From: Clostridia bacterium
GTDB lineage: Bacteria > Bacillota > Clostridia > Oscillospirales > CAG-272
NCBI GenBank assembly: GCA_017467085.1
Contig: JAFTSW010000062.1
Span: 4,669-68,668, forward strand
Direction: 5' to 3'
DNA: 64,000 bases
Notes under the pieces: generated by a model
Told to the model about the DNA's origin: nothing
Database searches by the model: none
What the model saw: only the letters and a program-made list of their open reading frames with translations
Translations under genes and position numbers: made by a program
Shown: positions 13,819 through 28,927 of the stretch, in pieces
Numbering within the stretch: position 1 is the stretch's first letter
How the letters are laid out: each line of letters begins with the position of its first letter

Positions 13819-14730
13819 TTAAGCCTCCGCTGCCGAGGGCAAGGAGGCGGAATCAGGGAAGAGCCCCTCGGAGGGAGAGGCAGGGGCATCGCTTTTCAAG
13901 GAGGGAAGAAAATCCTTGAAATACTCCTCCAGCAAATCGCTTTGCTCCTCCAGGTAAACCGCCGTATCCTTGGCTACGTTGCAATAGCCCGCGCGGTAGC
14001 CCTTGATGCCGTTGAAAACCAGGGTGAACATCTTGGATACGTACCCCACCAGCAGGGCAGGGTTGGGGTTGACGATGATGTCGCACAGCACCGATACCGA
14101 GAAAAAGGCGGTAAAGAGAGAGGCAAAGAGATAGGGGAGAAAGCGGCGCCGCTTGGCGGCGGCAGGGGTCTTGGAAAGAGGAGGGCGGTAGCCGCCCTCC
14201 TCCCTGCTCCAAAGGAGCATAGACGGGGTAATGCGTACCTGGCGCATCCGCTTGACACGGATAAGCCCCCTTTTCTGGGCAGGGGAAAGGGTGGCGCTTG
14301 GCGCCTTTTCCGTCAAAGCCTCCTCGGATAACCCGTAAAGGGAGAGAAGGGCGCGGCGCGCCGATAGGGTTTCACGGTGGCTGACTCTCTCGCAAAAGAG
14401 CAGAAGAGAGCGCATATCTCCCTCCTCCCGAAAGCGCAGACGGAAGCGCCGCGCTCGCTCTGCCGCCTCGCAGTATTCCTTTTCCTGCTTGGCGCGGTCA
14501 GCGCCCGTTTCTGACAGGGAAAAATACATCACGTAGGAGGCAAATAACAGAATAAGAAATTGCAGGGAAAAGGAAAGCGAGGCTTGAAAGCTGACGGTGA
14601 TATCCGTAAAGAAAAGGGCAGACACCGCCAAAAAGGTAAAGACAGCGCAAACGATTCCAAGATTGGAAAGGACGCCGCGCAGCGTCCCACGCCCCTCGGC
14701 GGTGGGAAGCTCGGAAAATGGATTGGACAT
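13819..14730 (-). CDS. Membrane protein (about 4 TM with a basic cytoplasmic loop), unknown function; last gene of the phage-like cluster
   Basis: 303 aa with RBS CAGGAGG. Hydrophobic segments lie at both ends. Confidence 0.55.
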   Translation of the reverse strand: MSNPFSELPTAEGRGTLRGVLSNLGIVCAVFTFLAVSALFFTDITVSFQASLSFSLQFLILLFASYVMYFSLSETGADRAKQEKEYCEAAERARRFRLRFREEGDMRSLLLFCERVSHRETLSARRALLSLYGLSEEALTEKAPSATLSPAQKRGLIRVKRMRQVRITPSMLLWSREEGGYRPPLSKTPAAAKRRRFLPYLFASLFTAFFSVSVLCDIIVNPNPALLVGYVSKMFTLVFNGIKGYRAGYCNVAKDTAVYLEEQSDLLEEYFKDFLPSLKSDAPASPSEGLFPDSASLPSAAEA

Positions 14731-14805
14731 AAAACCTCCTGAAAGCTAAGAGAGAGGGGAGAGAGCAAGCCCCCTCCTCTCTTGCAGATGGGCTTGCCTT
14801 GGACG

Positions 14806-15147
14806 TTACGGCTTTTTCGCTTGGCGCCGCGCCAGATAAAAGCATAGGGCGCCAAGCATACTGGAGGGGAAGGCCACCAGCGCAACGGCAATCAAGCCGT
14901 CAATGATGTTGCGGAACAGGGACAGAAAGAGCCAAAGAAGGAACCAGACCATCCAGGCGGAGGGGCTTTTCAAGACCTGCTTGACCGTTTTCCAAAGGGG
15001 CAAGACCGCCAAAAGCAAAACCAGTACCCCAAAAAGAGAAAGGGCTTGGGCTCTGTCCGAGAGCCAGATGGGGAAATGCTCCAAGGAGGATACAAGGGCG
15101 GGGACGATGCAAAGCACGTAGCCCGCAATACGTAAACAAATAACCAT
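14806..15147 (-). CDS. Small polytopic membrane protein (holin-like by size and topology only)
   Basis: 113 aa with about 4 TM segments, a charged C-terminus (RRQAKKP) and RBS GGAGGA. Confidence 0.5.
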   Translation of the reverse strand: MVICLRIAGYVLCIVPALVSSLEHFPIWLSDRAQALSLFGVLVLLLAVLPLWKTVKQVLKSPSAWMVWFLLWLFLSLFRNIIDGLIAVALVAFPSSMLGALCFYLARRQAKKP

Positions 15148-15172
15148 TACAGTTGCTTATCCTCCAAGGGGA

Positions 15173-15943
15173 TTATTCGTTTTCTGCCAGGGTCCGCTCA
15201 AAGGCAAGGTAGCGCTCGGTCATCAAATCCTTCTGCGCTTGGGGCAGGTTGGCGCACTGTAACAGCCGAAACAAAAGCTCGGTTTCGGTTTGCAGGGCGG
15301 CAGAGGTCTTTTGCTTTTCCTTAACGCTGTCCGCAAGGGCGTCCTCCAAGGCGGCAAGCCGCTTTTCGGCTTCACGCAAAACGGAAAGCGCGTTCTCGGA
15401 GGCAAGGACGGCGGCGTCTGCCCCCGCCTTCAGGGTGGCGAGCTTTTCCTCTGCCACGGCGGAAAACTCCGCCGTTTTCTTGCCTGCCTTATCGGTGGCG
15501 TCGGACATAGCGGAAAGCCCTGCCCGTAAAAGGGGCAGAAGCCCCGTTTTGTAAAGTAAGGTTGGCACAATGGAGGCTAAACAAGCCAAGGCGCAGAAGA
15601 TTTTTTCGGCGTGCTCCTCCAAAAAGGCGCCAACGGCGTTCGAGAACACCGCCGAGGCTCCCTTTTCCGTGTCGGAGAGAAGGGGTGCGTCCTCTACGGG
15701 GGTGTTCCCAGCGGGCGCGTCCTCAACGGGGATATTCCCAACGGGCGCGTCCTCTACGGGGGTATTCTCCATAGAGCTTTCCGCCGCGTCCCCGTCAGCA
15801 GGGTCGCCGCCCGAGGGAAGCAAAGCCCCCTCGGCGCTATCTGTCGGGGTCAGCACGGGGGCATTCTCCTCGGCGGCAACGCCGAGGGAGAAAACCAGGG
15901 AAAAAAGCAAGAGGGTTGCCAAAAGGCATAGCGTTTTTTTCAT
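15173..15943 (-). CDS. Signal-peptide protein with a 10-aa tandem repeat, a central TM and a C-terminal coiled coil
   Basis: ATG at 15943 behind GGAGG. It starts MKKTLCLLATLLLFSLVFSLGVAA and carries the repeat PVEDAP(V/A)GN(I/T) three times. Confidence 0.6.
   Translation of the reverse strand: MKKTLCLLATLLLFSLVFSLGVAAEENAPVLTPTDSAEGALLPSGGDPADGDAAESSMENTPVEDAPVGNIPVEDAPAGNTPVEDAPLLSDTEKGASAVFSNAVGAFLEEHAEKIFCALACLASIVPTLLYKTGLLPLLRAGLSAMSDATDKAGKKTAEFSAVAEEKLATLKAGADAAVLASENALSVLREAEKRLAALEDALADSVKEKQKTSAALQTETELLFRLLQCANLPQAQKDLMTERYLAFERTLAENE
15683..15770. repeat. 30-bp coding tandem repeat, about 3 copies
   Basis: The unit GGGCGCGTCCTCNACGGGGNTNTTCCCANC is repeated head to tail. It encodes the 10-aa repeat of the 15173-15943 protein. 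Confidence 0.85.
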
Positions 15944-15969
15944 AAAATTCCTCCAAATGAGATAAAGTG

Positions 15970-16356
15970 TCAAAAAAGGGAGGCGCCAAGAAACCTGGTG
16001 GAGAGCGCCTCTATGGCTTGCTCCGCCTTTTCCAAGCGAAGCGTCAGCTCCTCCACACGGTTCAGAAGGGACAGCACCGTCTTTTCCGTAGGGAAGGAGA
16101 GGGGCTTGACTGTGGCGCCGTGGCGGTATAGACTCTGGCAGAGAAAGCGCTCTCCGCCTACACTCACCGCTACGGTGTTTTCTCCCTCCAGAAGGTCGGT
16201 GGGAGAGAGGCGAAAAACCAAGGCGCGCCTGCCCTCCTCTATGGGAGCGCCGTTCAGAAGCAGTCGCCCCTCCTTCTCCAAGCGAATATAAAAGGTGCCC
16301 CTTTGCTCCTTCTGGGAGGTGAAAATGGCAAAGCCGTCAAGCAGTTTGATATCCAT
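15970..16356 (-). CDS. Hypothetical phage-cluster protein
   Basis: ATG at 16356 lies 7 nt after AAGGAG. 128 aa with a C-terminal coiled-coil-like tail. Confidence 0.5.
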   Translation of the reverse strand: MDIKLLDGFAIFTSQKEQRGTFYIRLEKEGRLLLNGAPIEEGRRALVFRLSPTDLLEGENTVAVSVGGERFLCQSLYRHGATVKPLSFPTEKTVLSLLNRVEELTLRLEKAEQAIEALSTRFLGASLF

Positions 16357-16492
16357 TGGCATTCTCCTTTTCCTTGAGCAGCGCCTCTGCCTCTTTTTGG
16401 GTGATGGCGCCCTTGGCAACGGCATCCTTCACTCGCTTCTCGGACCAAAGCCCCGCGAGAAAATATTGGCGGATTTTTTCAAGCCTCGTCAT
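16337..16492 (-). CDS. XkdX-like small phage protein (51 aa). Not in the ORF track because it is under 60 aa.
   Basis: My own translation is MTRLEKIRQYFLAGLWSEKRVKDAVAKGAITQKEAEALLKEKENANGYQTA. It matches the remembered XkdX pattern (I..yY..GlyT...V...V.kG.IT.eEy). Its start is embedded in the end of the upstream ORF. Confidence 0.55.
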   Translation of the reverse strand: MTRLEKIRQYFLAGLWSEKRVKDAVAKGAITQKEAEALLKEKENANGYQTA

Positions 16493-16637
16493 CGTCGGCA
16501 TCCTCCTCCAAATCAATCTCTGCCATCATAGCAAGGTAATCAAGGTCTGCCGCAAGCTTAGCGTTTTGGGCGGCAAGAGCATTGTTTTTCTGCTCTGCCT
16601 CGTGTAAGGCGGCGCGTGTGTTTTTATAAATCAGCAT
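16479..16637 (-). CDS. Small coiled-coil acidic protein (52 aa)
   Basis: ATG at 16637 behind AAAGGAG. The sequence is MLIYKNTRAALHEAEQKNNALAAQNAKLAADLDYLAMMAEIDLEEDADDDEA. Confidence 0.45.
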   Translation of the reverse strand: MLIYKNTRAALHEAEQKNNALAAQNAKLAADLDYLAMMAEIDLEEDADDDEA

Positions 16638-16659
16638 AATAGCTCCTTTCTGTTGGGCG

Positions 16660-17832
16660 TCAGGCAATGACGCAAAGGGGGGCAATACCTGCCGCTACGT
16701 TGGCGGCAATGCCGGAAAGCTCGCCCTTGGCGCCCACCGCCTTGCAATGGGATAAGGTATCCACGTCCACCGAGCGCAAAAGCCAGGGAGTGGCGACGCC
16801 GTCCTTATACTTGATGCGCCCCTTGTCCTCTCCGTCGGCTGCCTGGGCGTTCTGGGAGAAAAGGCGGGAGTAGGGGTAGGGCGAGCCCTCGCTTTTCCCC
16901 TCGGCATCCTCCACCTCGGCAAAAACCTCTCCCTCGGAGGGTAAGAAGAAAAAGTCCTCGGTTTCGGTATAGGCGCCGCCAAAGAAGGGCTTGTTCTCGC
17001 GGCTGACCTTCTTAACGGGGCAAAGCACCGAGAGAAAGTCCCCGTCCAGACCGTACATAAAGCCGTTTACGTCGTAATTCCAGGCGGCGTAATGCTCAAA
17101 GGCGGTGGGACAGCCCTTGAAGATGCTGCCCTTGGCGGCGGCGCTGTTCAGGTAGGTGCGAATCAGGGAATAGCGCCAAAGGTTGTAGCCGTAGCGGATG
17201 CGCTCTGCCGAGGTGGTCTTGGAGGCAGGAATCAGGGTGCCGCTTTCCCCTGCGTATACCGACACCGTTTCAATGGGGGAGGTGGCAAAGGCAGAGGCGT
17301 AGCTGGAAAGGGGGGTATTCACTACCGTCCTTCCCACCGTCCAAGGCAGATAAAGGTGACCCCCTGCGGGGACGTCCTTGGTCAAGGTGAAGTGGTAGTA
17401 ATTCTCGCCGCCCTCCAGCAAATCCGTGGCGGAAAGGGCATTTTTACCAAAAAGGTAAAAATAATAGGTGCCTGCGGGCAGCGCGGAGGCGCAGAAATAG
17501 AGGGCGTGGGAGCAGGCAAAGGGCAAAAGCGCCAGAGGGTTATGCAGCTGCAGGGTCATAGAGTGACGGGGGGAGCCGTCGGCGTTGGAGAGCGCCTCGC
17601 TGTCAAAGCCCACCACGTCCCAAGCCAGATTTTTTCCCTCCTTCTGGCAAATCAGCTGGTCGCCGATAGACAGCACCTCCTTGGCAAGCCCCGTGCGGAC
17701 CAGCGCCTGCACGTCTGTCCAGGTGTGCAGCTCCATATACTCCTTGCGGGCTAAAATACGCAAAAGGGCGTTTTGCGTGTCCATCTTTTCCGCAAAGGTG
17801 GAGTCGGATAAAATGTTAATAAAGGTTGACAT
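16660..17832 (-). CDS. Putative receptor-binding or tail-accessory protein
   Basis: 390 aa located in the fibre region. The C-terminal PWLLRS segment recalls the DUF6273-type domains common in Firmicutes surface and phage proteins; this comes from memory only. Confidence 0.45.
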   Translation of the reverse strand: MSTFINILSDSTFAEKMDTQNALLRILARKEYMELHTWTDVQALVRTGLAKEVLSIGDQLICQKEGKNLAWDVVGFDSEALSNADGSPRHSMTLQLHNPLALLPFACSHALYFCASALPAGTYYFYLFGKNALSATDLLEGGENYYHFTLTKDVPAGGHLYLPWTVGRTVVNTPLSSYASAFATSPIETVSVYAGESGTLIPASKTTSAERIRYGYNLWRYSLIRTYLNSAAAKGSIFKGCPTAFEHYAAWNYDVNGFMYGLDGDFLSVLCPVKKVSRENKPFFGGAYTETEDFFFLPSEGEVFAEVEDAEGKSEGSPYPYSRLFSQNAQAADGEDKGRIKYKDGVATPWLLRSVDVDTLSHCKAVGAKGELSGIAANVAAGIAPLCVIA

Positions 17833-17855
17833 TCAAAAATCCTTTCTGTTGTGTG

Positions 17856-18956
17856 TTACACCTTCTCGGTGAGAAGAATACCGGGCTTACCCCCCTCTAT
17901 GGCAAGGGAGTAGGTGTAGACCCGTCCCGTTTCCTCGTCTACGAGGGTGTGGGGCGGCAGGTCAAGCAGGCGCTCCTCGATGGCCTTGACCCTTTCCGCC
18001 TTGGCAAGGGTAGCAGAGGACAGGGTCTTATGCAGGGTCAGGGTGTTGCCTGCCGAGGTAATGCCCGTGACAATGTCCCCATCTCCCTCGGCGTAGAGAA
18101 TGGTGGTCTTTACCAAATCTCCCACCCGAATGTAGATGTGGGCGGCGTCCTCCGTAGACAGGGTAAGGTCGATATACGCCTCGCCCACCCGGTAGGAGGC
18201 AACGGGAACCCCTGCCACCTCGCAGGTGCGAAGCTCCCCCTTCTTGACCACCAAGTCCTTGGGGATGTTGATGTCAAGGGAGTAGGGGGTGGGGGAGAAA
18301 TCCCCCTCTGAGGGGACGCCTTCGCCGTCATAGCATTCCAAGCGGTATACCTTGGCGTAGGCGTCCGAGGGCACCTCGGCAATGCGGAAGCGTGTGGGCA
18401 GGGACTTTCGCAGGGTGTCAAGCCCCGTTTTAGCCTCATTCTCCACCGCCAAGGTGTCGGCGGCTCTTTGGGCGTTGTCACTTTCCTGCTTTTGCGTCTG
18501 GGCGGCAAGCGCCGCCTCCTGGGCATCCAAGCGAAGGAAAAAATCCTTTTTGCCCTCCTGTAGGGCGGCAATCGTGTCGGCAAGGGCGTCAAGCTCGCTC
18601 TTGCAACGCGCAAAGAGGGAGGCAAGGGTGGTTTCTCCGTCCAAGGAGAGATAAGTGGCAAAGCGCCCTGAGGTGATGTCGGCAAAAAGCGCCTCCAAGG
18701 AATGACCCTCGATAATGCCCGTGGCAATAAGGGATGCCAGCGTTTCGCCGCTTTTCTCGTCGGTGTAAAGACCAAAGGCGTCAATCAGACGGTTGAAGCG
18801 CTCCGCTAAGAGGAAGGGGAGCTTGTCAAAGGCGGCGCGCAGCTCCTTGGCGGATAGCATCCGCCCTCCGTAGAGGGAGGGAGAGGAGGGACGGGTCGCC
18901 AAGGAAGAAACGGCGTTTTCCTCTAATTCGGCTTGTAAAATTTTGGATATACTCAT
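17856..18956 (-). CDS. Putative tail-fibre-like protein with a central coiled coil
   Basis: 366 aa with an Ala/Gln-rich heptad-like stretch (DAQEAALAAQTQKQESDNAQRAAD) and a beta-rich C-terminus. The call also rests on its position after the large tail-like gene. Confidence 0.45.
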   Translation of the reverse strand: MSISKILQAELEENAVSSLATRPSSPSLYGGRMLSAKELRAAFDKLPFLLAERFNRLIDAFGLYTDEKSGETLASLIATGIIEGHSLEALFADITSGRFATYLSLDGETTLASLFARCKSELDALADTIAALQEGKKDFFLRLDAQEAALAAQTQKQESDNAQRAADTLAVENEAKTGLDTLRKSLPTRFRIAEVPSDAYAKVYRLECYDGEGVPSEGDFSPTPYSLDINIPKDLVVKKGELRTCEVAGVPVASYRVGEAYIDLTLSTEDAAHIYIRVGDLVKTTILYAEGDGDIVTGITSAGNTLTLHKTLSSATLAKAERVKAIEERLLDLPPHTLVDEETGRVYTYSLAIEGGKPGILLTEKV

Positions 18957-18964
18957 AGTTCGTC

Positions 18965-18986
18965 GCCTTCGCCCCGGGGCGAAGGC
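18965..18986. repeat. Perfect 22-nt GC-rich palindrome between two cluster genes
   Basis: GCCTTCGCCCCGGGGCGAAGGC equals its own reverse complement. On the mRNA strand it lies between the GGAGG RBS and the ATG at 18956. Confidence 0.9.
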
Positions 18987-19001: not shown

Positions 19002-21932
19002 TTAGCGCCTGTGGTGTAGCTTGCCTGCCACTCCAAAGGAGTAGGAAAGCCCGTAAACACCAAAGGGAGAGCGAAACACCTCGCCAAAGATGGCAAGCTG
19101 CTTTTCGCACCAGCCCCGTTCCTTTTCCCTGATGGGAAGAGTAACGGCGGAATCCTCGGAGAAGGAAAAGGCGGAAAAGTCTGCCCCCTCAAAATCCGCC
19201 GCATCGGTGTGCGCGCGGTCAACGGGGTGCCAGGCGGCTCTGTCCGTGCGCGCTTCAACGCAAAGATGGGTAGGCGCCAGTACCTTCAAGCGAAGCGCCA
19301 CGGTGCCCGAGGCGGTATTTTTTCGCAGATTGGGAATACCGCCGTTGTCCTTGGCGGTGGCACAGCCAACGGGATATCGGTGGCCGTTAAAGGAGTAGAA
19401 GTAGGCGGGAATGCGTCCTGCCCGTCCCTCCTCCAATAGCGTAGCCAGGGTGTATACGTTGCCGTTTTGATAAACGGGATGCACCCCAACGGGGAGATAG
19501 ACCCCGTCCTTCTCCTCATAAAGGGGAAGGAAAAGCAAAGCACCTCGGCTTTGTATCTCGCCGCCCTCCCCTGCAAGAGAAAGGTAGCGTCCCTCCTTTT
19601 CGTAATACAGGGCAGAGGGAACGGTGCAATAGAGTGCCTCGCCTCGTTTGTCGGTGTTGAAGCAGCCAACGGCGCCGTTTTCGGTAGCAAAATAAAGGGC
19701 GTCTGCCCCCGCTACCAGAAAAACGGCAGGGGAAAGGGTACCGCCCGTCCGCTCTCCGTCGGTGTCGACTCCATAGCGCTTGCCGTCCTGCTCTACGTAG
19801 TATAGCAGCGCGCCGCTTTCTCCCACCAGGGAATAGACGGTGCCTTCTGCCTCCTCGCCGCCTCTTTCGTGTAAACAAATGTTTGCTTTTTCGGCGTCGG
19901 GCGGCAGCGCCTCGGCGTAGCGGTACAGGGGCGCATCTCCCACGAAATCTCCCACCCCCGTCAGATAGTAAAACTCGTATTGGGTGTCCCCTGCGGGGTG
20001 GCGGTAGCTCTCGCGGCTGTCTGCCAGGTACAGATTGCCTCTTGTCAGAATGAAAAGATATCCCTCGAACACCGCCATTTTGGCGGCGGCAAGGTCCTCG
20101 CGGCAAAGCCGTAGGTTTACCGAGGCAGAGCGCAGGGCAAGAGAGCGCTCTAAATTCACCGCCTGGCGCTCCACCGCCAAGAGCCCGTTACGGGTCAGAA
20201 AAACGGGGTCATCCCGAAAGTTGATGGCGCCGCCTACCGCACCGATGCCCGAGGCGCCCGATTTGGCAGGATAGATACGGGGGGCAAAGGCGTGGGCGGT
20301 GGACTCTGCCGTATGGTAGTACAGTCCCCCCTCCGAGGCGCCCTCCTCCTTGATGACCATCAGCATATCTCCCGTGCCTAAAAGGGCGCGGTTGGGGACG
20401 GAGGACAGCCCATCGTTAAAGTAGTTCAGGTTGCCGATGTAAAGGGGGTTATTGTAGCCCGTTTCATCGGGAGCGGAGAAAAAGACGGTGTTGGGTAAAC
20501 GGGGGTTGCCCGTAAAGAAAATGCGTCCGTCATACTGACCCACGGTGCGACAGCCCAAAACGGCGTCCCGACCCGACAGGGGCAGCCCCCCTTCGCCAAA
20601 CGCCTTGAAGCCCAAGGGCGTGGAAAAGCGGTCGGGGGAGGCGTCAAGACGGACGGTCACCGTCCGTCCCGATAAAACCGAGGCATCAGCCACCAGAATA
20701 CACACCGACTTGACCAAGCCGTCCTGCCATATAGGGGTGTAGGAGGCGTGTACCCCGTATACCAGCGAGCCGCCCTCCTTGATTTCCTCCTCCCCCAAAA
20801 GCACCTCGACAATGCCAAGGGCAGGGGTGTAAAGAGGACAAAGGAGCAGCTTCCGCTCACGGGGGGGCGGCGTTGCCTCTAAGCAGAGGGTTGCCTCCTT
20901 GGGGAAGGTGTCCTCGCCGTCGGTAAAGGTGATGTCCGCATACGCCGCGGCGTTGCCCGAAAAATAAACCGTCCGCAGGCTGTCAGCCCCCATAAACGCC
21001 TCCGCTCCAACGGTCAGAAGCCCCTCGTTCAGGGTCACGGAGGTGAGAAAGGGGCAAAAGGCAAAGGCATGATGCCAGATATAGAGAAGGGAGCTTGGCA
21101 GGGTTACCTCGGAAAGAGAGGCACAGCCCGCAAAGGCGTAGGCGCCAATCTCGGTTACCGTGTCGGGAAGGGAAACACCCACAAGGTTGGTAAAGCCCGT
21201 GAAGGCGCCCCCTGCCACGCCCGTGACGGTGTAGCGCGCCCCGTCAATCTCCGTCTCGGCGGGAATATGCAAAACGGTGGGGGCATTCATTGGGGCGCCT
21301 GCCTTGACGGCACAGCACCCGGGAAGGCTGGGCAGAGGGACAAAGACCAGGTCCGTATATTCCTCCGTTGCCTTTTCCTCTAAGGCGGCGGCGGTAGACG
21401 CCTCGCGGACCTCGTCGGTCAGAAGATTTCTTTGCTCGTAGTATTCGCCGTTGTAAAACACGATGGGGGCGTAGGGCAGGTCCCTTTCATCGGGTAGCCC
21501 CAGGCAGACGCCCTCCCCGTCTACCCGATACAGCGCCCCCTCCACCAGCAAATAGAAAAGCTCCCCCGACTGAAAGCCGCAGCCCTCCTTCTCGGGAAGG
21601 GCGGAAAAGATGGGGGCAAGGGAGGCAAGGGCGGCGGGCTGATGCCGCAGGGAGGTGGGAAAGCGAAAGAGCCTTTTGTCCGCGTGAACCAACAGATATT
21701 CTACCCCGCCTGCCCGTTGGGTATAAATGCCGTATATTTTGCTTCCGAAGGAGGCAAAAAGGCGATAGCCGGGGAACGCCTCCACGGCAGGGCCGTCATC
21801 GCTCTGCCAATCCTTCCACATGTTTTTCAGATTGGCAAAGCGGTCCAGCGAAAGAGAGGTATCGTCCACCGAGAAGTCCACCCCGCGAAAGCGAGAAAAG
21901 CTCCTGGTGTAAATGCTTGCGTCCGTTCTCAT
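19002..21932 (-). CDS. Large tail-like structural protein (976 aa) with an inserted BspA-type leucine-rich-repeat segment
   Basis: It overlaps the upstream gene by ATGA. Residues about 220-325 (nt 20958-21275) contain LRR units (TVTEIGAYAFAGCASLSEVTLPSSL..., LTSVTLNEGLLTVGAEAFMGADSLRTVYF). The remainder is beta-rich with recurring G.LY motifs. Confidence 0.55.
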   Translation of the reverse strand: MRTDASIYTRSFSRFRGVDFSVDDTSLSLDRFANLKNMWKDWQSDDGPAVEAFPGYRLFASFGSKIYGIYTQRAGGVEYLLVHADKRLFRFPTSLRHQPAALASLAPIFSALPEKEGCGFQSGELFYLLVEGALYRVDGEGVCLGLPDERDLPYAPIVFYNGEYYEQRNLLTDEVREASTAAALEEKATEEYTDLVFVPLPSLPGCCAVKAGAPMNAPTVLHIPAETEIDGARYTVTGVAGGAFTGFTNLVGVSLPDTVTEIGAYAFAGCASLSEVTLPSSLLYIWHHAFAFCPFLTSVTLNEGLLTVGAEAFMGADSLRTVYFSGNAAAYADITFTDGEDTFPKEATLCLEATPPPRERKLLLCPLYTPALGIVEVLLGEEEIKEGGSLVYGVHASYTPIWQDGLVKSVCILVADASVLSGRTVTVRLDASPDRFSTPLGFKAFGEGGLPLSGRDAVLGCRTVGQYDGRIFFTGNPRLPNTVFFSAPDETGYNNPLYIGNLNYFNDGLSSVPNRALLGTGDMLMVIKEEGASEGGLYYHTAESTAHAFAPRIYPAKSGASGIGAVGGAINFRDDPVFLTRNGLLAVERQAVNLERSLALRSASVNLRLCREDLAAAKMAVFEGYLFILTRGNLYLADSRESYRHPAGDTQYEFYYLTGVGDFVGDAPLYRYAEALPPDAEKANICLHERGGEEAEGTVYSLVGESGALLYYVEQDGKRYGVDTDGERTGGTLSPAVFLVAGADALYFATENGAVGCFNTDKRGEALYCTVPSALYYEKEGRYLSLAGEGGEIQSRGALLFLPLYEEKDGVYLPVGVHPVYQNGNVYTLATLLEEGRAGRIPAYFYSFNGHRYPVGCATAKDNGGIPNLRKNTASGTVALRLKVLAPTHLCVEARTDRAAWHPVDRAHTDAADFEGADFSAFSFSEDSAVTLPIREKERGWCEKQLAIFGEVFRSPFGVYGLSYSFGVAGKLHHRR

Positions 21933-22501: not shown

Positions 22502-22514
22502 AGCGGCTCCTTTT

Positions 22515-23591: not shown

Positions 23592-24005
23592 TTATACGCG
23601 GGGAAAATGGACAAGCACGGGCTCGCCTTTCTTGCTTGCGCCGCATTTGTCCAACAGAATGACGCCACGGTGAGAGGCGGATGCCCTCGTGGCAGAGAGC
23701 TGCGTGCCGTCGGGCGACAGAAGGTACTCGCCGCCCTCCGTCATATCCTCGCACCCCTCGGCAAGAGGAATGGAGAAAACCATATCCTCGCTAACGGGAA
23801 AGAGAAGCGGAGAGAGGGTGGCAGGCTCCGTTGCCTTGGCAATATGGGTGGGCAGAAGGGAGGAGGTGGCGGTGAAGGGCAAAAGCACCTTGTCCTTGTA
23901 GATGTACGCCATTCCCGCCTCTACCGCCGTTGCCTCGGAGAGAGGCAGACGCTGGGGCTCGGGGACGTTGACGCCCCGTCCGATGATTTTGCGTAAGGTC
24001 AGCAT
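23592..24005 (-). CDS. Hypothetical head-module protein (decoration- or assembly-type by position)
   Basis: 137 aa with RBS AAAGGA, located between the scaffold-like and capsid genes. Confidence 0.4.
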   Translation of the reverse strand: MLTLRKIIGRGVNVPEPQRLPLSEATAVEAGMAYIYKDKVLLPFTATSSLLPTHIAKATEPATLSPLLFPVSEDMVFSIPLAEGCEDMTEGGEYLLSPDGTQLSATRASASHRGVILLDKCGASKKGEPVLVHFPRV

Positions 24006-24026
24006 AAAAAATCCTTTCGTTCATGG

Positions 24027-24533
24027 TTAAGTCGACTTGACACGGCGGTAAAGACGCTGAATCTCTCCGTCGCTCAAATCCGAAAAAAGCTCCTTGGCGC
24101 GGCGCATTTCCTCGCCCGACAAAGCGCCGCGGGGAGAGGCGGCGCCCCTGTCCATGCTGGGGCGCAGGTGCGCCTTTCCGTTTTCTCTCGGAAAACGGGG
24201 ATTGGAGGCGGCAAGTGCCTCTGCCACGGAAAGCCCTAAGTCACGCAGGGCGGCAAACCGACGGGCAGAGGGCAGCTGGCTCAGATGGGAAAGGGAACGG
24301 TAGGCAGGGTCAAGGCGCTTGATTTCCTCTAAGTCCTCCTCAGCCTGTCGGGCGTAGTCCCGTTCCTCGGCGGGTGCCTCGGGCTCCTCGGGCGCCTCGG
24401 GAAGCGCCGCTTCCTCGATGGGCGTTTCCTCCTTTCGAGGAGCCGCTTCCACGCTGTCTATTGCCTTGTCGGTGGGCGCCTCTACGGGCGAGGAGAGGGC
24501 GTCCGTTTCCTGTACAGTGGTTTCTTGTTCCAT
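24027..24533 (-). CDS. Putative scaffolding protein
   Basis: 168 aa. The N-terminus is acidic and Pro/Glu/Ala-rich and the C-terminus is helical. It lies between the portal and capsid genes, and no prohead protease is present. Confidence 0.5.
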   Translation of the reverse strand: MEQETTVQETDALSSPVEAPTDKAIDSVEAAPRKEETPIEEAALPEAPEEPEAPAEERDYARQAEEDLEEIKRLDPAYRSLSHLSQLPSARRFAALRDLGLSVAEALAASNPRFPRENGKAHLRPSMDRGAASPRGALSGEEMRRAKELFSDLSDGEIQRLYRRVKST

Positions 24534-24554
24534 GGTTTTTCCTTTCCTTTCGGC

Positions 24555-24698
24555 TTACTTGCTCTTTCTGCCTGCTCTCAGGTCCTCGCCCTTATGCACG
24601 GTACCCTTGGGCTCGTTTTCGGGCTTGCGGGGCGCGGCAATGGGAGCGATGCTGTTGGTGGCATAGGGATTAGAGGGCGTGTTTTGCTTTTTCATCAT
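24555..24698 (-). CDS. Possible small basic protein (47 aa). Not in the ORF track.
   Basis: My own translation is MMKKQNTPSNPYATNSIAPIAAPRKPENEPKGTVHKGEDLRAGRKSK, with RBS GAAAGGA. It fills an otherwise empty 180-nt gap. Confidence 0.35.
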   Translation of the reverse strand: MMKKQNTPSNPYATNSIAPIAAPRKPENEPKGTVHKGEDLRAGRKSK

Positions 24699-24713
24699 TG
24701 AAATCCTTTCGTA

Positions 24714-25418
24714 TTAAAAATAATCGTTTGGGTCAAAGGTGGCGTTGATAACGGCGGCGGTGGCACGGGCAATTTCCTCGGCAACCGCAGGGGATAAACC
24801 GTAGGAAATGGCGTATTCATAGGCGTCCTGGTAGGATAAGTATTTCCGCAAGGCGGTTTCCAGCACCTCGCGCTTGACGGTGGAGGAGTTCTTCACCATC
24901 GATACGCTCAGCGAGGCTAAGCGCCTTGCCGTTTCGCTGTCCAGCCCGTTTTCGCCCAAAAAGGCGAAGGCGCTTTCCTCGTCCTCCACGTTCTGGGACA
25001 AAAGACGGAGAAAAAGACTGCTTCTTTTTTCCGTTTCTGCCTGTGCCGCCTTCTTGGCGTTTTCCGTTTCACCGTCTAAGTAAGCGGTGTAGGCGCTTTT
25101 GTTCTTCGCCTCCCCCTCTGCCATAGCGGCACGGGCGCGGTCAACCGATTTTTGTCGCTCGGCGTAGGCAACGCCGTCTAAATATTCGCCGTAGCCGCTT
25201 CCCGTCAGACCGCGGGAAAGCAATGCGGAGGCGCGCGTGCCGTAGGTAGACTTAGCGGCAGCCATCGTGGTGTCTGCGGATCGCACGGCGTCCTTATACG
25301 CCGCCTCGGTGTCCTGTCCGTACTTGGAAAGCCAGCTCTCGTAGTCCTCGATTTTCTTGTTTTCCAGATACTGTTTGATAAAATCCTCAAGCGTTGGCAT
25401 AGGGTAGCTCTTCTTCAC
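24714..25418 (-). CDS. Hypothetical head-module protein following the portal gene
   Basis: 234 aa, Ala/Glu/Lys-rich and helical. An alternative start exists at 25400. It overlaps the portal 3' end. Confidence 0.45.
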   Translation of the reverse strand: MKKSYPMPTLEDFIKQYLENKKIEDYESWLSKYGQDTEAAYKDAVRSADTTMAAAKSTYGTRASALLSRGLTGSGYGEYLDGVAYAERQKSVDRARAAMAEGEAKNKSAYTAYLDGETENAKKAAQAETEKRSSLFLRLLSQNVEDEESAFAFLGENGLDSETARRLASLSVSMVKNSSTVKREVLETALRKYLSYQDAYEYAISYGLSPAVAEEIARATAAVINATFDPNDYF

Positions 25419-27183
25419 TCCTTTCGGGGGCTATGGGGGGTGTGGGCGTTTCCCTTTCCGTGATGGCGCGGAAATATTCCACGTTCTCTCTGGCGTAGGG
25501 GTAATGGGCGCGCTCCTGGCATTGCCAGTAGTGCAAAAGGGTGGCAGGGTCCCCGGGGTCCCCCAGCGTGCCTGCCTGCAGGTTCTCTAAATTCTTCTGC
25601 CAAAGGGCATCTCTTTGCTGCTCCAAGGCGCCGTTCTGGTCCACCGAGAACAAAAAGCCGTCGTCATAGGTATACCGACCGCTTTCCTCATCGTAGAGAA
25701 GGAAATCGTAGCGGTTGAAGGCGGTGTGATGGGGCTTGCCAAAGGCGTCACGGTAGGAAAGGGGACGGGGCTCGTCTGCGTAGGCTAAGAAAAATTCAAA
25801 GAGGATGCGGTCTAAATCCGCATACGCCGCCTGCTTCATCTTGCGCTTGGAGTCCAAGCGCCCTGCCGCCTGCTGCACCTGGATTTGCTTGGCGTAGCCC
25901 GATTGCGCGGTGGAGTCCGACATACCGAGATAGGAGTCGGTGATGCCGATAATGCGCTTGGCGTGCTGATAGAGGCGCTCGGATTGCTCAATGTCCTGGG
26001 CGATAGCGGGGGTGGTGTCCAAAACGCCGTAGCGCTCCCGCTCGTCCCCCGTGCGCAGCTTGATGACCTGACCGAAGATGGAGTTGTCTAAGGTCAGCTC
26101 CGCATCGTCGGGCAAAATCGGGGTGATGCCCGAGCGCATCAGCTTTTGCAGAATGCGGCTTTCGATTTTGTTGATTTGCTGCTGCTGTGGGCGAATAAAC
26201 TCGCAGTCCGATTGCCCGAAAAGGGATTTTTCCTCCGAGGTGTTCTTGCGGATGACGATGGGAAAGCGGCGGGGTCTGTAATAGGGCAGACGGGTGGGCG
26301 AAAGCTGCTCACCGCATTCTCCGTTTTGCACCGTGGGCGAGTAGGCAGGAATGACTCTTCCGTCGGAAAGAAGGATATCCTCCGACAGCATTTCCTCCTC
26401 CTCGTTTGCCCAGTAGAGGGAGGGCGCCTCGCAGGTGCAAAGCAGCCGTTTTTTCTCACAGCGCCGACATTTTTGGGTCTTGCGCGCGTAATAGTCCTCC
26501 AAATCCGACAGCACCGTGTCGCCGCTATACACGAATTGAGAGATGTACCCGTCATCGTTGCGCCAGAAGCAGACCACCATCTCCAGAACGTCCTCGTCAT
26601 CTCCGTCAGAGGACAGACCTGCCGCCTCCTCCTCGTCCAAGGAGAAGCGGCGGATGATGGCGTTCTTGGTGGTGTCAAAGCGCAAAAAGCAGTATTCCAT
26701 ATCCTCAATATCGTACACCTCTGCCTCGGGGACGAAGTCCATCGGGTTGAGGCAGCTGACGCGCACCCCACCCGTGACACCGCGGTAAAGAAGGGAGTTA
26801 TCCCATTCCACAAGCCAGACGCTTCCGCCGTAAATATAGGTGTAGCGCTCGTCCAAATCGTTGAGCTTTTCAAAGGGAAGCTCGTTGCGAAGCTGTAAGC
26901 AAAGGCGCTCGATGGCCTTGGCGTTTCGGTCGTTCTGCTCGGTGTAGTGCTTCGCCTCGGCGCAGGGGGCGGGAATCTGGGTGGACACCTGGGACTCTAT
27001 CAGCTCATAGGTGATGTTTCGTACCACGGACGCCGCCTCAGCAGAGCCGTCGATTTCCTTGGCGCCCTTGTACTGGGCAAGATGCCGTTCCAATCGCAGG
27101 AAAAGGGCCGCCTGCTTGTCGCGGTTTTTTCGGTACAGCTCCTTAAAAAAGGAGAGCCTGTCCGCAACGTGGGAAAGATTCAT
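25387..27183 (-). CDS. Putative portal protein
   Basis: 598 aa from the ATG at 27183, which overlaps the terL stop as ATGA. The longer ORF-track N-terminus is an Arg/Pro-rich artefact lying inside terL. Size and position after terL fit a portal. Confidence 0.65.
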   Translation of the reverse strand: MNLSHVADRLSFFKELYRKNRDKQAALFLRLERHLAQYKGAKEIDGSAEAASVVRNITYELIESQVSTQIPAPCAEAKHYTEQNDRNAKAIERLCLQLRNELPFEKLNDLDERYTYIYGGSVWLVEWDNSLLYRGVTGGVRVSCLNPMDFVPEAEVYDIEDMEYCFLRFDTTKNAIIRRFSLDEEEAAGLSSDGDDEDVLEMVVCFWRNDDGYISQFVYSGDTVLSDLEDYYARKTQKCRRCEKKRLLCTCEAPSLYWANEEEEMLSEDILLSDGRVIPAYSPTVQNGECGEQLSPTRLPYYRPRRFPIVIRKNTSEEKSLFGQSDCEFIRPQQQQINKIESRILQKLMRSGITPILPDDAELTLDNSIFGQVIKLRTGDERERYGVLDTTPAIAQDIEQSERLYQHAKRIIGITDSYLGMSDSTAQSGYAKQIQVQQAAGRLDSKRKMKQAAYADLDRILFEFFLAYADEPRPLSYRDAFGKPHHTAFNRYDFLLYDEESGRYTYDDGFLFSVDQNGALEQQRDALWQKNLENLQAGTLGDPGDPATLLHYWQCQERAHYPYARENVEYFRAITERETPTPPIAPERSEEELPYANA

Positions 27184-28547
27184 AGTGGTTCTCCATATTT
27201 CTGTTTTAGGTATCGCTTTTGCTCGTCGGAGGCGTGGCGGTAATCCTCCCACAAGTCCTTGTGCCAGACCCGACGCTCCACGGCGCGCTCCTCTCTTGCG
27301 GCGTGGGTGAAGGTAATGGCGAAGCCCCGCAGGGCGTCGGGTGCGTGTGTGATGGCGTGGGGCTCGGTCAACACGTCTGTGGGGGCGTCGGGGTTGATTT
27401 GGAGCATAGGCAGACAGCGACAAAGCTCTCGGCATTGTCGGAAGATGCGAAGGCGCGGTGTTCCGTCCTCACGAATTTTAAGCAATTCCTTCACGGCAAG
27501 CCAACCGGCCTCGCGGTTGTTGCCCGAACGGGTGAAGCTAACACCGTTCTCCGCAAATAAAATCGCCTTGCTCTTTCCCGTTTCCTGGGAGCGGCTCCAT
27601 AAATCGGGGGGCGCTAAGGTGGCGTAGATTTTGTCCTCGCCGTTGCGCCGCCCGATGGCGGCCGCCGCCTCGGAAATAATCAGATTGGACTCGCAAAGCT
27701 CCTTGTAAACGTATACGTCCTCATTGGGCGCAATGGCAATCCAAAGGCAGGCTAAGCGGTCAAGCCCGTAGTCAACCGTGCGGTAGCGCCGCCAGTCGGG
27801 TGGAATGACAAAGGGGTCCACCACGTGCAGCGCCTCGGAAAATTCGGGAAAATACTGTCCCTCGAAAATGTTCCAATCCCCGTATAAGAGCGCCTTTCTC
27901 TGGCTTTCGGGCAGCTCCAAAAGGCGCTTCTTGTAATCGGGGTCCCCCTCTGTTAAAAAGAGGTTATCGTCTATAAAGGAGGGGAGAAAAATGCGGCTTC
28001 CGCCGCCCTCGCAAAAGACGGTGTTGGGGGGAGATGGGTCAATAAAGCGCTCCTTCACCCAGGCGTGACCGATGCCGCCGGGGTTGGTGGAGGACTTTAC
28101 CTGCTTGGGATAGCCGTTTGCGCCGCGCAAACGGGAAATGAGGTACAGGTACTGAAATTCGGTGAAATGGGTCAGCTCGTCAAAGCGTATCACGTCATAT
28201 TCTGCGGATTGGTACTGAAAAACGTCGTTCTCGACGGCACAGTAGCCAAAATCAATGACACTGCCATTCTTGAATTTCCCCGTGTGTGAGGAAGAATTAT
28301 AACGGTAGATATCCCGTGGGAAAAGACCCAAGGATACACGGATAAGGGACTTTTCCAGCTCCGCATAGGTGCGGCGTAGAATCAGCTGCTTGGAGGCAGG
28401 ATAGCGCAAGGCGTATACCAAGGCATCCACCAGCTGACCGTAGGATTTTCCGCCGCCTGCCGCTCCGCCAAACAGAACCTCTGTCGCGTCGGCGGTAAGA
28501 AAATCGTACTGGCGTCTTGTAACCGAAAGAGAAAGACTCGCCTCCAT
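27180..28547 (-). CDS. terL: Terminase large subunit
   Basis: 455 aa with Walker A GGAAGGGKSY, a Walker B-like VIRFDELTHF, and a C-terminal nuclease-type region. Confidence 0.8.
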   Translation of the reverse strand: MEASLSLSVTRRQYDFLTADATEVLFGGAAGGGKSYGQLVDALVYALRYPASKQLILRRTYAELEKSLIRVSLGLFPRDIYRYNSSSHTGKFKNGSVIDFGYCAVENDVFQYQSAEYDVIRFDELTHFTEFQYLYLISRLRGANGYPKQVKSSTNPGGIGHAWVKERFIDPSPPNTVFCEGGGSRIFLPSFIDDNLFLTEGDPDYKKRLLELPESQRKALLYGDWNIFEGQYFPEFSEALHVVDPFVIPPDWRRYRTVDYGLDRLACLWIAIAPNEDVYVYKELCESNLIISEAAAAIGRRNGEDKIYATLAPPDLWSRSQETGKSKAILFAENGVSFTRSGNNREAGWLAVKELLKIREDGTPRLRIFRQCRELCRCLPMLQINPDAPTDVLTEPHAITHAPDALRGFAITFTHAAREERAVERRVWHKDLWEDYRHASDEQKRYLKQKYGEPL

Positions 28548-28927
28548 TATTCCTTCGGCTCCTTTACCGTTACCGACAGGGAGAAGGCATCAGCGCCCCC
28601 GTCCTCCTCTCTGTCGGAATAGCCGTAGCGCGCCGCCAGAAGAAATTTGGAGAAGGAGGAGTCGAAGCGCTTGCAAAGAGCGCCCTCGGTGATGCGGTCC
28701 TTCAGAATTTCCTCACATTCCCCGTATGCCTCGCGAAAGACCTCCTCCCGCTCACGCAAGCAAAGCAGCGCCTTGACCGTCAGATTTTCTCTGTGGGCAA
28801 AGCGCACGAAGGAGGGAAGCGCTTCCTTATATTCACTGCCCTCGCACCCTGCCGTTTCAAAATAGCGAACCATTTTTTTGGCAAGTCGGGTGGGGGTGTT
28901 CTCGTCAAGCGTGTGGGCTTCTTCCAT
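28547..28927 (-). CDS. terS: Terminase small subunit
   Basis: 126 aa. An HTH-like segment is followed by ...ITEGALCKRFDSSFSKFLLAARYGY, typical of small terminases. Its stop overlaps the terL start (TAATG). Confidence 0.6.
   Translation of the reverse strand: MEEAHTLDENTPTRLAKKMVRYFETAGCEGSEYKEALPSFVRFAHRENLTVKALLCLREREEVFREAYGECEEILKDRITEGALCKRFDSSFSKFLLAARYGYSDREEDGGADAFSLSVTVKEPKE

Follow-up and report, generated by a model that had tools for sequence, protein, structure and literature searches.

Background

Detailed knowledge of gene transfer agents (GTAs) is limited to a few lineages, of which only one comes from gut Firmicutes: FpGTA, a podovirus-like GTA-like element of Faecalibacterium prausnitzii (Borodovich et al., Nat Commun 2026, PMC12946183; preprint 2024). 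FpGTA particles have been observed, and GTA-like packaging of 4.6-8.9-kb host fragments was reported for Ruminococcaceae, Oscillospiraceae, and Christensenellaceae (the paper's names), with the loci outside Faecalibacterium not identified (PMC12946183). Long-read particle sequencing indicates that host DNA is commonly packaged in a GTA-like manner among gut Clostridia, and no firm link to a gene cluster has been made except in Faecalibacterium.

The locus and its comparison with described systems

The window (the whole 64-kb stretch of DNA that was analysed) contains 18 co-oriented genes on the minus strand at 13819-28927 (~15 kb), encoding the small and large terminases (TerS, TerL), portal, scaffold, capsid, adaptor, tail nozzle, fibres, and three membrane proteins. 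The cluster lies between trxB and DUF554/pgsA, flanked by nrdG-nrdD-trxB on one side and by DUF554, pgsA, a MiaB-like gene, DnaJ, and DUF5685 on the other. The features, in order of transcription, are:

29017-29047, minus: putative late-type promoter; box ACCCCC (29047-29042), a 19-nt spacer beginning TTTCAAGT, and -10 TACAAT (29022-29017)
28547-28927, minus: small terminase (terS), 126 aa; phrog_3064 1e-6, GP3_package 2e-4
27180-28547, minus: large terminase (terL), 455 aa; phrog_979 2e-44, Terminase_6N 1e-11
25387-27183, minus: portal, 598 aa; phrog_156 5e-34, P22_portal, SU10_portal
24714-25418, minus: g04, 234 aa, remnant of a MuF-like post-portal head protein; family HMM alignment
24555-24698, minus: g05, 47-aa basic peptide of the NPYATN...GNDLR type; position kept in relatives and phage-type loci
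24027-24533, minus: scaffold-like acidic protein, 168 aa; position and composition
23592-24005, minus: g07, 137 aa, fast-evolving, head-associated; phrog_24113 2e-4
22515-23564, minus: major capsid protein, 349 aa; phrog_371 4e-9
21929-22501, minus: head-to-tail adaptor, 190 aa, between the capsid and nozzle genes; SU10_adaptor 1.4e-4, phrog_13046
19002-21932, minus: predicted tail nozzle, 976 aa; AlphaFold model and Foldseek, LRR_5 9e-18
17856-18956, minus: g11, fibre or spike protein, 366 aa; conserved N-terminal anchor, variable C-terminus
16660-17832, minus: g12, DUF6273 receptor-binding-type protein, 390 aa; DUF6273 1e-9, phrog_19280 2e-25
16337-16637, minus: two tiny ORFs, a 52-aa coiled coil (16479-16637) and an XkdX-like protein (16337-16516; Phage_XkdX PF09693 7e-7)
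15970-16425, minus: g14, 128-151 aa, C-terminal coiled coil; conserved in close relatives
15173-15973, minus: g15, membrane protein; N-terminal membrane anchor, acidic proline-rich repeats, Ala/Glu/Lys coiled coil
14806-15147, minus: g16, 113 aa, about four membrane helices and a basic C-terminus; sequence features
13819-14730, minus: g17, 303 aa, 2+2 membrane helices around a basic helical domain; alignment
13780-13809, no strand: bidirectional intrinsic terminator common to the cluster and trxB; 12-bp stem, T runs on both strands

As in FpGTA, this is a chromosomal, structural-only, podovirus-type cluster (TerS, TerL, portal, capsid, nozzle) in a gut Clostridia host, with no replication or integration genes, and P22 gp10 (8eap), reported as a match of the FpGTA nozzle, was likewise matched by the window nozzle. 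The last gene of the FpGTA operon encodes an Ala/Glu/Lys-rich 'TolA-like' protein, and may possibly parallel g15. However, the FpGTA capsid is annotated as 'N4-gp56 family', whereas the window capsid had no NCBIfam match at E ≤ 0.01 and its orthologues match Phage_capsid_4. FpGTA has one Prp-like gene between portal and capsid where the window cluster has four genes, and its genes are divided between two operons that lie 125 kb from each other, the second of which encodes the fibres, holin, and endolysin, whereas here one 15-kb operon includes the tail and fibres and no endolysin was seen. Membership of the FpGTA family is thus not supported on capsid family and gene order, although a distant common origin is not excluded in the absence of a direct sequence comparison. 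No published description of the window cluster's family was found in the literature searched.

RcGTA of the Alphaproteobacteria shares with our locus a ~15-kb head-to-tail structural cluster, vertical descent throughout a large host clade, purifying selection under which the capsid is best conserved, and regulation and lysis outside the cluster (general background and PMC9662315), but it is siphovirus-like, with tail tube, tape measure, and prohead protease, it belongs to Gram-negative hosts, and it has no sequence relationship to the window cluster. The cf-PICIs are likewise chromosomal, with their own capsid, portal, and terminases, but they are mobile, carry integrase, replication, and regulatory modules, and lack tail genes, and the window cluster is the opposite on each of these points.

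Boundaries and composition

An earlier sequence-only reading had proposed the 18 ORFs with these coordinates and this orientation, their overlapping stops and starts, and the bidirectional terminator shared with trxB, and all of these held; the overlaps are 1 nt for terS/terL and 4 nt each for terL/portal and adaptor/nozzle. Its terminase, portal, and capsid calls likewise held in HMM searches. The absences that it had noted were also confirmed: in family searches of all cluster proteins there were no matches to integrase, replication, repressor, protease, or lysin families, no tRNA was present in the 64-kb window, and neither direct repeats of at least 10 nt between the two flanks nor att-like repeats were found. 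The cluster proteins gave no family match to tail tube, tape measure, or baseplate, and no endolysin or regulator was found in the window. Its impression of host-like GC held only in part, given that GC3 of the cluster (0.66-0.76) is host-like but total GC (0.574) is above that of the flanks (0.537-0.553). The lower-GC region after 58.2 kb, with which it had contrasted the cluster, is a V-type ATPase operon and not foreign DNA.

Head, tail, and membrane proteins

The window TerS lacks the 45-60-aa basic N-terminal arm found in TerS of the phage relatives. The HTH-like motif LPSFxxFA is still present, and the sequence therefore does not imply non-specific packaging. The family HMM of g04 aligns with an internal stretch of 540-820-aa post-portal proteins in phage relatives, and in one phage contig (L170) a giant protein with MuF_C and ART-PolyVal domains is encoded upstream of the scaffold gene. 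The scaffold family is present in all loci, with a median length of 165 aa versus 294 aa in the phage relatives (~130 aa shorter), and g07 is also present in these phages.

The AlphaFold model of the 976-aa protein (pLDDT 87.7) matched the nozzles of cyanophage A4, T7 gp12, SU10, and P22 gp10 in Foldseek (E 4e-18 to 1e-9, probability 1.0), identifying it at the level of the predicted fold as a podovirus tail nozzle of the T7/SU10 type. The protein carries an inserted BspA-type LRR domain, spanning approximately residues 200-340. An LRR_5 match was missing from seven of the eight phage-relative nozzles tested and weak in the eighth (E 9e-4), indicating that the domain was gained relative to the phages. 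The SU10_adaptor match of the preceding protein is weak and below Pfam's cut-off, and the order of adaptor followed by a T7 gp12/SU10/P22 gp10-type nozzle meets the criterion for podovirus tail architecture.

The receptor-binding region is more variable. The N-terminal ~100 aa of g11 are common to proteins at the same position that range from 128 to ~1120 aa in chromosomal loci and reach 1160 aa in phage relatives, and g12 is clade-specific, being found only in L001 and L009-L011, with different genes at that place in other clades. The XkdX match is above Pfam's cut-off, and both tiny ORFs are called in the L001 orthologue; outside the close relatives, a ~135-aa protein of family F15 takes the position of g14.

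Both the family and the phage relatives conserve the three terminal membrane proteins, g16 being present in all 47 of the loci scored. Neither a family match for g15 nor an informative PDB match for g17 was obtained. The sequence features of g16 suggest a holin-like role, an inference that amends the earlier annotation of it as a membrane protein only.

Putative late promoter and candidate regulators

The putative promoter is followed by a ~85-nt leader with a hairpin, extending to the terS ATG, and its motif occurs only once in the 64 kb. A homologous box, (G)TAC[TC][TCA]A-N19-(-10), lies upstream of terS in relatives, and ACTTAC-N18/19-TAnA[AC]T occurred 30 times in 1.39 Mb, 29 of these at terS. 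The phage relatives have the same promoter architecture, with the same box type and spacing; the function of this box as a promoter is inferred. A leader terminator box precedes terS in the phages and is absent from the chromosomal form.

Directly upstream of the late promoter, the phages encode a ~111-aa protein with a weak match to phrog_248 'transcriptional activator', of which no homologue was found in the window. A copy of this candidate activator is kept in one subclade (L006, L008, L042, and L070), and a CI-like S24 repressor, not present in the window, lies beside the cluster in L008, L042, and L070; one or both of these genes thus adjoin the cluster in some subclades only.

Distribution, selection, and vertical history

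The capsid gene was detected in at least 197 species-level genomes, all of them uncultured Clostridia, Eubacteriales, or Oscillospiraceae MAGs, and portal homologues of the family number in the thousands in metagenomes (more than 2870); the window portal has the same sequence as NCBI MBQ8908180.1, which comes from a MAG labelled Clostridia bacterium. Among the best 80 loci, which were inspected, those with enough sequence had the colinear cluster. The terminases, portal, scaffold, capsid, nozzle, and three terminal membrane proteins were intact in 47 of the 47 genomes in which the whole cluster span was visible.

Relative to three orthologous loci, the 17 genes tested had dN/dS of 0.05-0.46, indicating purifying selection. 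The terminases, portal, and capsid were the most conserved (0.05-0.11; ~0.05 for terL and 0.06-0.07 for the capsid, which has 74-95% identity across the family), and g07 reached 0.34-0.46. These values are approximate because dS was near saturation; cluster dS was similar to that of the flanking host genes. The element diverged in step with the ABC-F gene beside it (Mantel r 0.78-0.88, p ≤ 0.0005), and in the portal tree 76 chromosomal portals formed one pure clade with the phage portals basal.

In the closest relatives (L009 and L010), the trxB-DUF554 interval contains the same structural-only cluster and not a full prophage. Elsewhere the cluster is flanked by housekeeping genes, which vary from clade to clade, and integrase was not among the 25 most frequent flank families in a Pfam scan of 121 flanking proteins from ~55 loci. 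The operon is circularly permuted in three species. A few loci (L037, L047, and probably L222) have the giant protein and a long scaffold, yet their capsids fall inside the conserved clade, and for two of these loci the same MAG additionally contains a canonical cluster; therefore, either phage and domesticated forms are not cleanly separated, or recombination takes place. With these few phage-type loci, the approximate dS, and neighbour-joining trees without support values as reservations, the cluster can be regarded as having been inherited vertically with its host over the long term, under purifying selection.

The sequence-only reading had named as grounds for its own rejection a full-length prophage in the trxB-DUF554 interval of relatives, hidden frameshifts or relaxed selection, and mistaken capsid, portal, or terminase calls. 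The relatives had only the structural cluster, and neither frameshifts in cluster genes nor relaxed selection was seen, such that every outcome that could be checked on sequence favours that reading.

Phage relatives and remodelling

Contigs of 40-48 kb in IMG/VR and ENA (for example, IMG/VR UViG_3300045988_080477 and the ENA contig L170) have terS to g17 in common with the cluster, and also encode a replication initiator, SSB, methylases, and many small early genes. These podophages have the same order of terS, terL, portal, g05, scaffold, g07, capsid, adaptor, nozzle, fibre anchor, g15, g16, and g17, but they encode a 2200-2760-aa MuF/ART-PolyVal protein whose counterpart in the window is reduced to the 234 aa of g04, as well as a ~294-aa scaffold, the basic TerS arm, and the leader terminator box, none of which is retained at full extent in the chromosomal form. 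Some of them have reverse transcriptases beside the fibre genes. The conserved capsid type was present in only 17 IMG/VR contigs, all ≤21 kb.

The cluster descends from a phage late operon, with a single origin and specific losses and gains. The losses comprise the early genes, the giant MuF-polyvalent protein, ~130 aa of scaffold, the TerS basic arm, and the leader terminator; the gain is the nozzle LRR, and the putative phage-type late promoter was retained.

A putative GTA-like element

The locus is likely (probability ~0.65) a late operon domesticated from a ~45-kb short-tailed phage and kept as a GTA-like element (viriform). The criterion of phage-derived structural genes without replication, integration, or excision functions is met, and because the late operon is intact and vertically inherited in at least dozens of species, it is a strong candidate for a new family of GTA-like particles. 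The domesticated, GTA-like locus proposed by the sequence-only reading is supported to this extent, with particle production, the nature of the packaged DNA, and transfer remaining inferences; its statement that no such system was characterised in Clostridia is out of date given FpGTA (PMC12946183).

In this view, the host lineage would keep a single chromosomal operon that builds DNA-filled podovirus-like particles. A factor encoded elsewhere would switch on the phage-type late promoter upstream of terS, and TerS/TerL would then load DNA into procapsids composed of the portal, the shortened scaffold, and the very conserved capsid protein. The adaptor, LRR-bearing nozzle, and exchangeable fibres would form a short tail binding related cells, and release or DNA delivery may fall to the three membrane proteins at the end of the operon, including the holin-like g16. 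Without replication, integration, or excision genes, the element cannot propagate itself, which means that most of the particle DNA should come from the host. That particles are produced, have smaller heads, package host DNA, and transfer it to recipients is inferred, as is the activating factor, and the hints on packaging (the shorter scaffold and the armless TerS) are only indirect.

A bolder reading, to which we would give a little less than even odds, is that the cluster is at once an independently domesticated, clade-wide GTA of uncultured gut Clostridia and the genetic basis of short-fragment packaging outside Faecalibacterium, accounting for at least part of the packaging seen in human gut particle fractions. 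In that reading, the steps of domestication would be directly readable because complete phage relatives survive; the giant MuF-polyvalent protein that was lost would have been an injected one, and the LRR domain gained in the nozzle would be an adhesin domain. If the GTA-like interpretation is correct, a family present in at least ~200 species-level genomes would be a major route of gene flow in the human and ruminant gut, and the existence of living phage relatives would make the transition from virus to cellular, organelle-like device testable gene by gene.

Alternative explanations

One alternative, an unlikely one, is a phage-responsive element that remains silent until the late activator of a related phage fires the shared promoter, after which its capsids and terminase would compete with the phage (interference or defence, as in capsid-forming satellites) or be used by it. 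The promoter box and spacing common to cluster and phages would be consistent with this, as would the candidate activator directly upstream of the phage promoter, its absence from the window, and the two MAGs with both a canonical cluster and a phage-type copy. However, known satellites are mobile, with integrase and replication genes, whereas the cluster has neither and co-diverges with its host. It also encodes a complete tail and therefore has no structural need of a helper phage, and the activator copy and CI-like repressor of some subclades suggest self-contained control.

Also unlikely is a killer or other non-transfer particle (PBSX-like or bacteriocin-like), released to kill or bind competitors and not to deliver DNA. 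The rapid exchange of the receptor-binding region and the gain of an LRR domain, typical of surface binding, would fit such a role, and the FpGTA authors leave the same option open for FpGTA (PMC12946183). Against it, the terminases, portal, and capsid are the best conserved genes, which argues for selection on DNA packaging, and short-tailed particles are not known to have contractile or membrane-puncturing killing machinery.

An autonomous phage is excluded because integrase, repressor, and replication genes were not found, nor were att repeats, and for an intact temperate prophage these and a lysis enzyme are absent from both the cluster and the window flanks. A functionless prophage remnant or small temperate phage, although in keeping with the phage-derived gene content and the existence of closely related complete phages, is very unlikely given that the same terS-to-g17 boundaries recur in dozens of species, with 47 of 47 clusters intact, purifying selection, and host-like composition.

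Gene content of the cluster

The 18-gene cluster is best explained as a domesticated, GTA-like particle locus, a likely reading to which we assign a probability of about 0.65; that it packages and transfers host DNA remains an inference, made by analogy and from the lack of means of self-propagation. The 18 ORFs share one orientation (minus strand, 28927 to 13819) and overlap slightly in several places, and family searches assigned several of their products.

Family matches of cluster proteins
terS, minus strand: phrog_3064 (1e-6)
terL, minus strand: phrog_979 (2e-44), Terminase_6N
portal, minus strand: phrog_156 (5e-34), P22/SU10 portal models
major capsid protein, minus strand: phrog_371 (4e-9)
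adaptor, minus strand: SU10_adaptor (1e-4, under the Pfam cut-off)
fibre-type protein, minus strand: DUF6273
XkdX-like tiny ORF, minus strand: PF09693 (7e-7)

The 976-aa protein is the nozzle. Its structure model (pLDDT 87.7), built on an alignment of 33 homologues from the database, matched the nozzles of cyanophage A4, HRP29, Kp9, T7 (gp12), SU10 and P22 (gp10) in Foldseek (E 4e-18 to 1e-9), and an inserted domain at about residues 200-340 matched BspA-type LRR structures. The encoded particle is therefore of the short-tailed type, made up of portal, adaptor, nozzle and fibres. Ten cluster proteins, including the capsid protein, had no NCBIfam match, and a PDB profile search with the terminal membrane protein g17 returned only chance-level transporter matches. 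The preceding membrane protein, g16, is putatively holin-like, a role inferred from its small size, about four membrane helices and basic tail; no endolysin was found.

Family searches of the cluster proteins gave no match to integrase, repressor, replication, protease or lysin families, the 64-kb window contained no tRNA, and no repeat of at least 10 nt was common to both cluster flanks. At its 3' end the cluster shares a bidirectional terminator with trxB, beyond which lie nrdD and nrdG (nrdG-nrdD-trxB), and its start is 228 bp from a divergent DUF554 gene, followed on that side by pgsA, a MiaB-like gene, DnaJ and DUF5685. The sequence-only reading, which had proposed a domesticated or GTA-like locus, was upheld on the 18 co-oriented ORFs, their structural-only content and overlaps, both boundaries, the absences listed here, and, under HMM check, the terminase, portal and capsid calls. 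Its impression of host-like GC held in part: GC3 is host-like, and the cluster GC of 0.574 exceeds the 0.54-0.55 of the flanks.

Vertical maintenance by the host

Domestication and vertical maintenance of the cluster are well supported. The cluster is flanked by housekeeping genes that vary by clade. The window's clade has trxB and DUF554-pgsA; in the largest clade, an amino-acid ABC transporter and ABC-F ATPase lie upstream, with a DinG-type helicase, Pfs, MFS transporter or CysK on the downstream side; and other loci have MutS2 or recA-recX. A Pfam scan of 121 immediate flank proteins from about 55 loci recovered transporters, helicases and metabolic enzymes; of the 112 flank families, the 25 most frequent included no integrase or recombinase, which leaves room for one or two loci to carry one.

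Relaxed selection or hidden frame breaks, either of which would have counted against the initial proposal, were not borne out. None of the 17 genes tested contained a stop codon, and their dN/dS values against the three closest orthologous loci were 0.05-0.46, with the capsid (0.06-0.07) and terL (0.05) in the range of trxB (0.05) and the MiaB-like gene (0.09-0.12). Synonymous divergence was near saturation in this comparison, and the cluster genes (dS 0.6-3.0, mostly 0.6-1.8) overlapped with the flank genes (dS 0.6-3.4). Pairwise identities of terL, portal, nozzle, capsid and g17 across 20-25 species correlated with those of the neighbouring ABC-F gene (Mantel r 0.78-0.88, p <= 0.0005).

Distribution and conservation across species

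More than 2870 portal homologues were found in a large protein collection, many of them 54-85% identical and on contigs of up to 477 kb. The window portal falls in a 90%-identity cluster with NCBI MBQ8908180.1 from a MAG named 'Clostridia bacterium', and the members of ten portal clusters included no cultured species, only generically named MAGs. An annotated phage collection yielded just two unannotated faecal fragments (35% portal identity). In a scan of one genome per species, the capsid gene was present in at least 197 species-level genomes; each of the best 80 carriers is an uncultured MAG of human or ruminant gut origin, under the name Eubacteriales, Clostridia, Oscillospiraceae or 'Ruminococcus sp.'.

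When all window proteins were compared, the relatives' loci had the same arrangement of genes between terS and the final membrane protein wherever sequence sufficed, with identities that differed by gene.

Identity of relatives' proteins to those of the window
capsid: 74-93%
terL: 61-93%
portal: 50-85%
most other cluster proteins: 25-50%

In the 47 genomes with the whole span (11.7-15.9 kb) inside the fetched DNA, terS, terL, portal, scaffold, capsid, nozzle and the membrane proteins g15, g16 and g17 were full length without exception (47/47). The segment from the fibre anchor (g11) to the coiled-coil protein g14 or to g15 has been exchanged between clades, as expected for receptor-binding genes.

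Phage relatives and remodelling of the cluster

IMG/VR held 365 portal relatives, among which short contigs carry the same cluster and contigs of 30-48 kb are real phages with small early-gene arrays, a replication initiator, SSB and DNA methyltransferases. In these phages the early genes are followed by terS-terL-portal, a long MuF-like protein and, in many, a giant protein of 2200-2760 aa; then come g05, scaffold, g07, capsid, adaptor, nozzle, fibre anchor, g15, g16 and g17, as in the window (g05 and g07 being small genes between portal and capsid). The giant gene, located between portal and scaffold, is the first ORF in six phage-type loci (L170, at 1-5943, L172, L190, L193, L227 and L230), and MuF_C and ART-PolyVal domains were recognised in the product encoded by ENA contig L170. 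Since the phages keep g15, g16 and g17 in the window order, these three terminal membrane proteins are ancestral late genes. An unrelated head in the IMG/VR phages L108-L164 was considered and rejected, as HMM searches and capsid-centred loci placed their head and tail genes past the 8-kb giant gene.

A neighbour-joining tree of the portals placed 76 chromosomal loci in one pure clade, with 35 phage-type loci basal to it. Compared with the phages, the chromosomal form has lost all early genes. Its post-portal MuF-like protein is reduced to the 234-aa g04, whose HMM aligns to the interior of the phage counterparts; its scaffold has a median of 165 aa, against 294 aa in phages, from which a head smaller than that of the 45-kb phages would be predicted; and its TerS retains an HTH-like motif without the 45-60-aa basic N-terminal arm of phage TerS. 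The chromosomal nozzle carries an LRR_5 domain, for which seven of eight phage nozzles gave no match and the eighth a weak one, and capsid identity to the window is 34-57% in phages versus at least 74% in chromosomal loci.

Reverse transcriptase genes (phrog_1423) adjoin the fibre genes of two phages, L190 (18333-19427; E 5e-133) and L203 (17840-18883; E 2e-87). They may belong to diversity-generating retroelements acting on receptor-binding proteins, an inference from sequence alone.

Exceptional loci

Two loci, L037 and L047 (probably also L222/L243 and L025), encode a giant protein and a long scaffold, yet their capsids fall inside the conserved clade. Both occur in MAGs that also hold a canonical cluster: JAZRQS01 (canonical L018, phage-type L037) and JAZNDG01 (L063 and L047, respectively). 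In capsid protein, L037 shares 83% identity with L018, and L037 and L047 both share about 80-82% with the window; the L047/L063 pair differs in GC (0.54 vs 0.61). Such loci might be closely related active phages, recombinants, less reduced copies or binning artefacts; each remains possible, as the upstream DNA is not visible, and a homologue search for DNA upstream of L037 gave no match. The conserved capsid type was present in only 17 IMG/VR contigs, the longest of 20.9 kb.

The operon is circularly permuted in three species (L023, L026 and L032). In L026 (9200-21030) and L032 the order is g05-scaffold-capsid through g17-terS-terL-portal, with a family-type promoter (TTACCA-N19-TAGAGT) in front of g05; ahead of the L023 scaffold gene, neither g05 nor a promoter could be identified.

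Promoter, leader and regulation

An exact match to the motif ACTTAC-N18/19-TAnA[AC]T was found upstream of terS in 28 of 54 loci, and 29 of its 30 occurrences in 1.39 Mb (both strands) were at terS. Other clades, including that of the window, have TACCCA, ACCCCC or TCCCCC separated by 19 nt from a TACAAT-like -10 box, and the late-type promoter motif of the window (29047-29017, minus strand) occurs once in 64 kb. The phage relatives share this layout (e.g., GGTACTA-N19-TATACT, in some with TTTCAAGT at the spacer start), and the late promoter was therefore inherited from phage. The upstream box does not resemble TTGACA, from which a dedicated activator or sigma-like factor may be inferred.

Between promoter and terS, 53 phage loci and no chromosomal locus carry a leader element, TGCCnATACCC...GAGGTTAGAGCCC, followed by a hairpin and T run. 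Judged only from sequence, the hairpin and T run would be an intrinsic terminator, and the leader as a whole resembles a late-operon antitermination site. With its box TGCCnATACCCnnnGAGGTTAGAGCCC, this leader is strongly conserved in IMG/VR phages (L108-L164, L171-L242; e.g., L125 at about 7700-7890). Chromosomal terS leaders (L009-L088, e.g., L038, L044, L045, L062, L073 and L086; window 29012-28928, minus strand) mostly begin with a hairpin that directly follows the -10 box and often opens with TTGC or TTGT; the stem sequences vary between loci, with pairing apparently maintained. Their mean folding-energy z-score was -1.35. Rfam had no family for the window terS leader or the conserved phage leader.

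Directly upstream of the phage late promoter lies a gene for a protein of about 111 aa, with a weak match to phrog_248 'transcriptional activator' (E 0.004) in L162, one of two phage copies tested. In one chromosomal subclade (L006, L008, L042 and L070), homologues are encoded immediately downstream of the cluster; an XRE-HTH/Peptidase_S24 (CI-like) repressor gene is nearby in L008, L042 and L070, and a DUF6291 gene was additionally called for L006 and L008. In L011, which is closely related to the window, an S24 gene 0.9 kb from the cluster was the sole module gene seen.

Regulatory module at the cluster 3' end
L008: 20443-21785
L042: 16793-18546
L070: 16973-18701
L006: 20876-21184
L011: 20621-20998

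These genes might indicate a repressor-controlled, perhaps SOS-linked switch in parts of the family; neither the activator homologue nor the S24 repressor was present in the 64-kb window.

Comparison with known gene transfer agents

Such a system had been thought uncharacterised in Clostridia, which failed in part: GTAs are a known kind of system, and FpGTA of Faecalibacterium prausnitzii is a podovirus-like form in gut Clostridia. FpGTA, listed under RCH50844-RCH50853 (CP030777 2536737-2546346), makes capsids of about 40 nm containing about 9 kb of random host DNA; its ten-gene operon I includes TerS, TerL, portal, a Prp-like protein, an 'N4-gp56 family' capsid, nozzle and a TolA-like protein, and operon II, 125 kb away, encodes fibres, holin and endolysin (Borodovich et al., PMC12946183). 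GTA-like packaging of 4.6-8.9-kb fragments was also reported, without identified loci, in Gemmiger, Ruminococcus callidus, CAG-115, Onthomonas and Christensenellaceae (PMC12946183). A 2026 preprint proposed further candidates in mouse gut Clostridia, none with the gene order of this cluster.

The FpGTA capsid bears the N4-gp56 family name, whereas the window capsid has no NCBIfam match; the portal-to-capsid gene content differs; and tail and fibre genes here share one operon, unlike the FpGTA fibres in their second operon. On these three grounds we treat the cluster as a separate lineage, which by analogy probably works like FpGTA. A distant common origin cannot be excluded, as no sequence comparison with FpGTA proteins was made. 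No description of this cluster family was found in the literature searched, and the family seems to represent a variant not described before, which is widespread, has an organisation of its own and descends from phages that can be identified.

Other features of the window

The lower-GC region at 58208-64000 (GC 0.49, strong GC skew) was considered as foreign DNA or a mobile element and rejected, as it encodes a V/A-type ATPase operon (DUF2764, ATP-synt_ab). A THF riboswitch (RF01831, 77 bits; 51397-51491, plus strand) lies upstream of a 196-aa ORF (51563-52153). The nrdG and nrdD genes adjoining trxB (9485-13757) include an 801-aa NrdD with a C-terminal glutaredoxin/thioredoxin-like domain (residues 719-784), suggestive, from sequence alone, of a redoxin-dependent class III ribonucleotide reductase.
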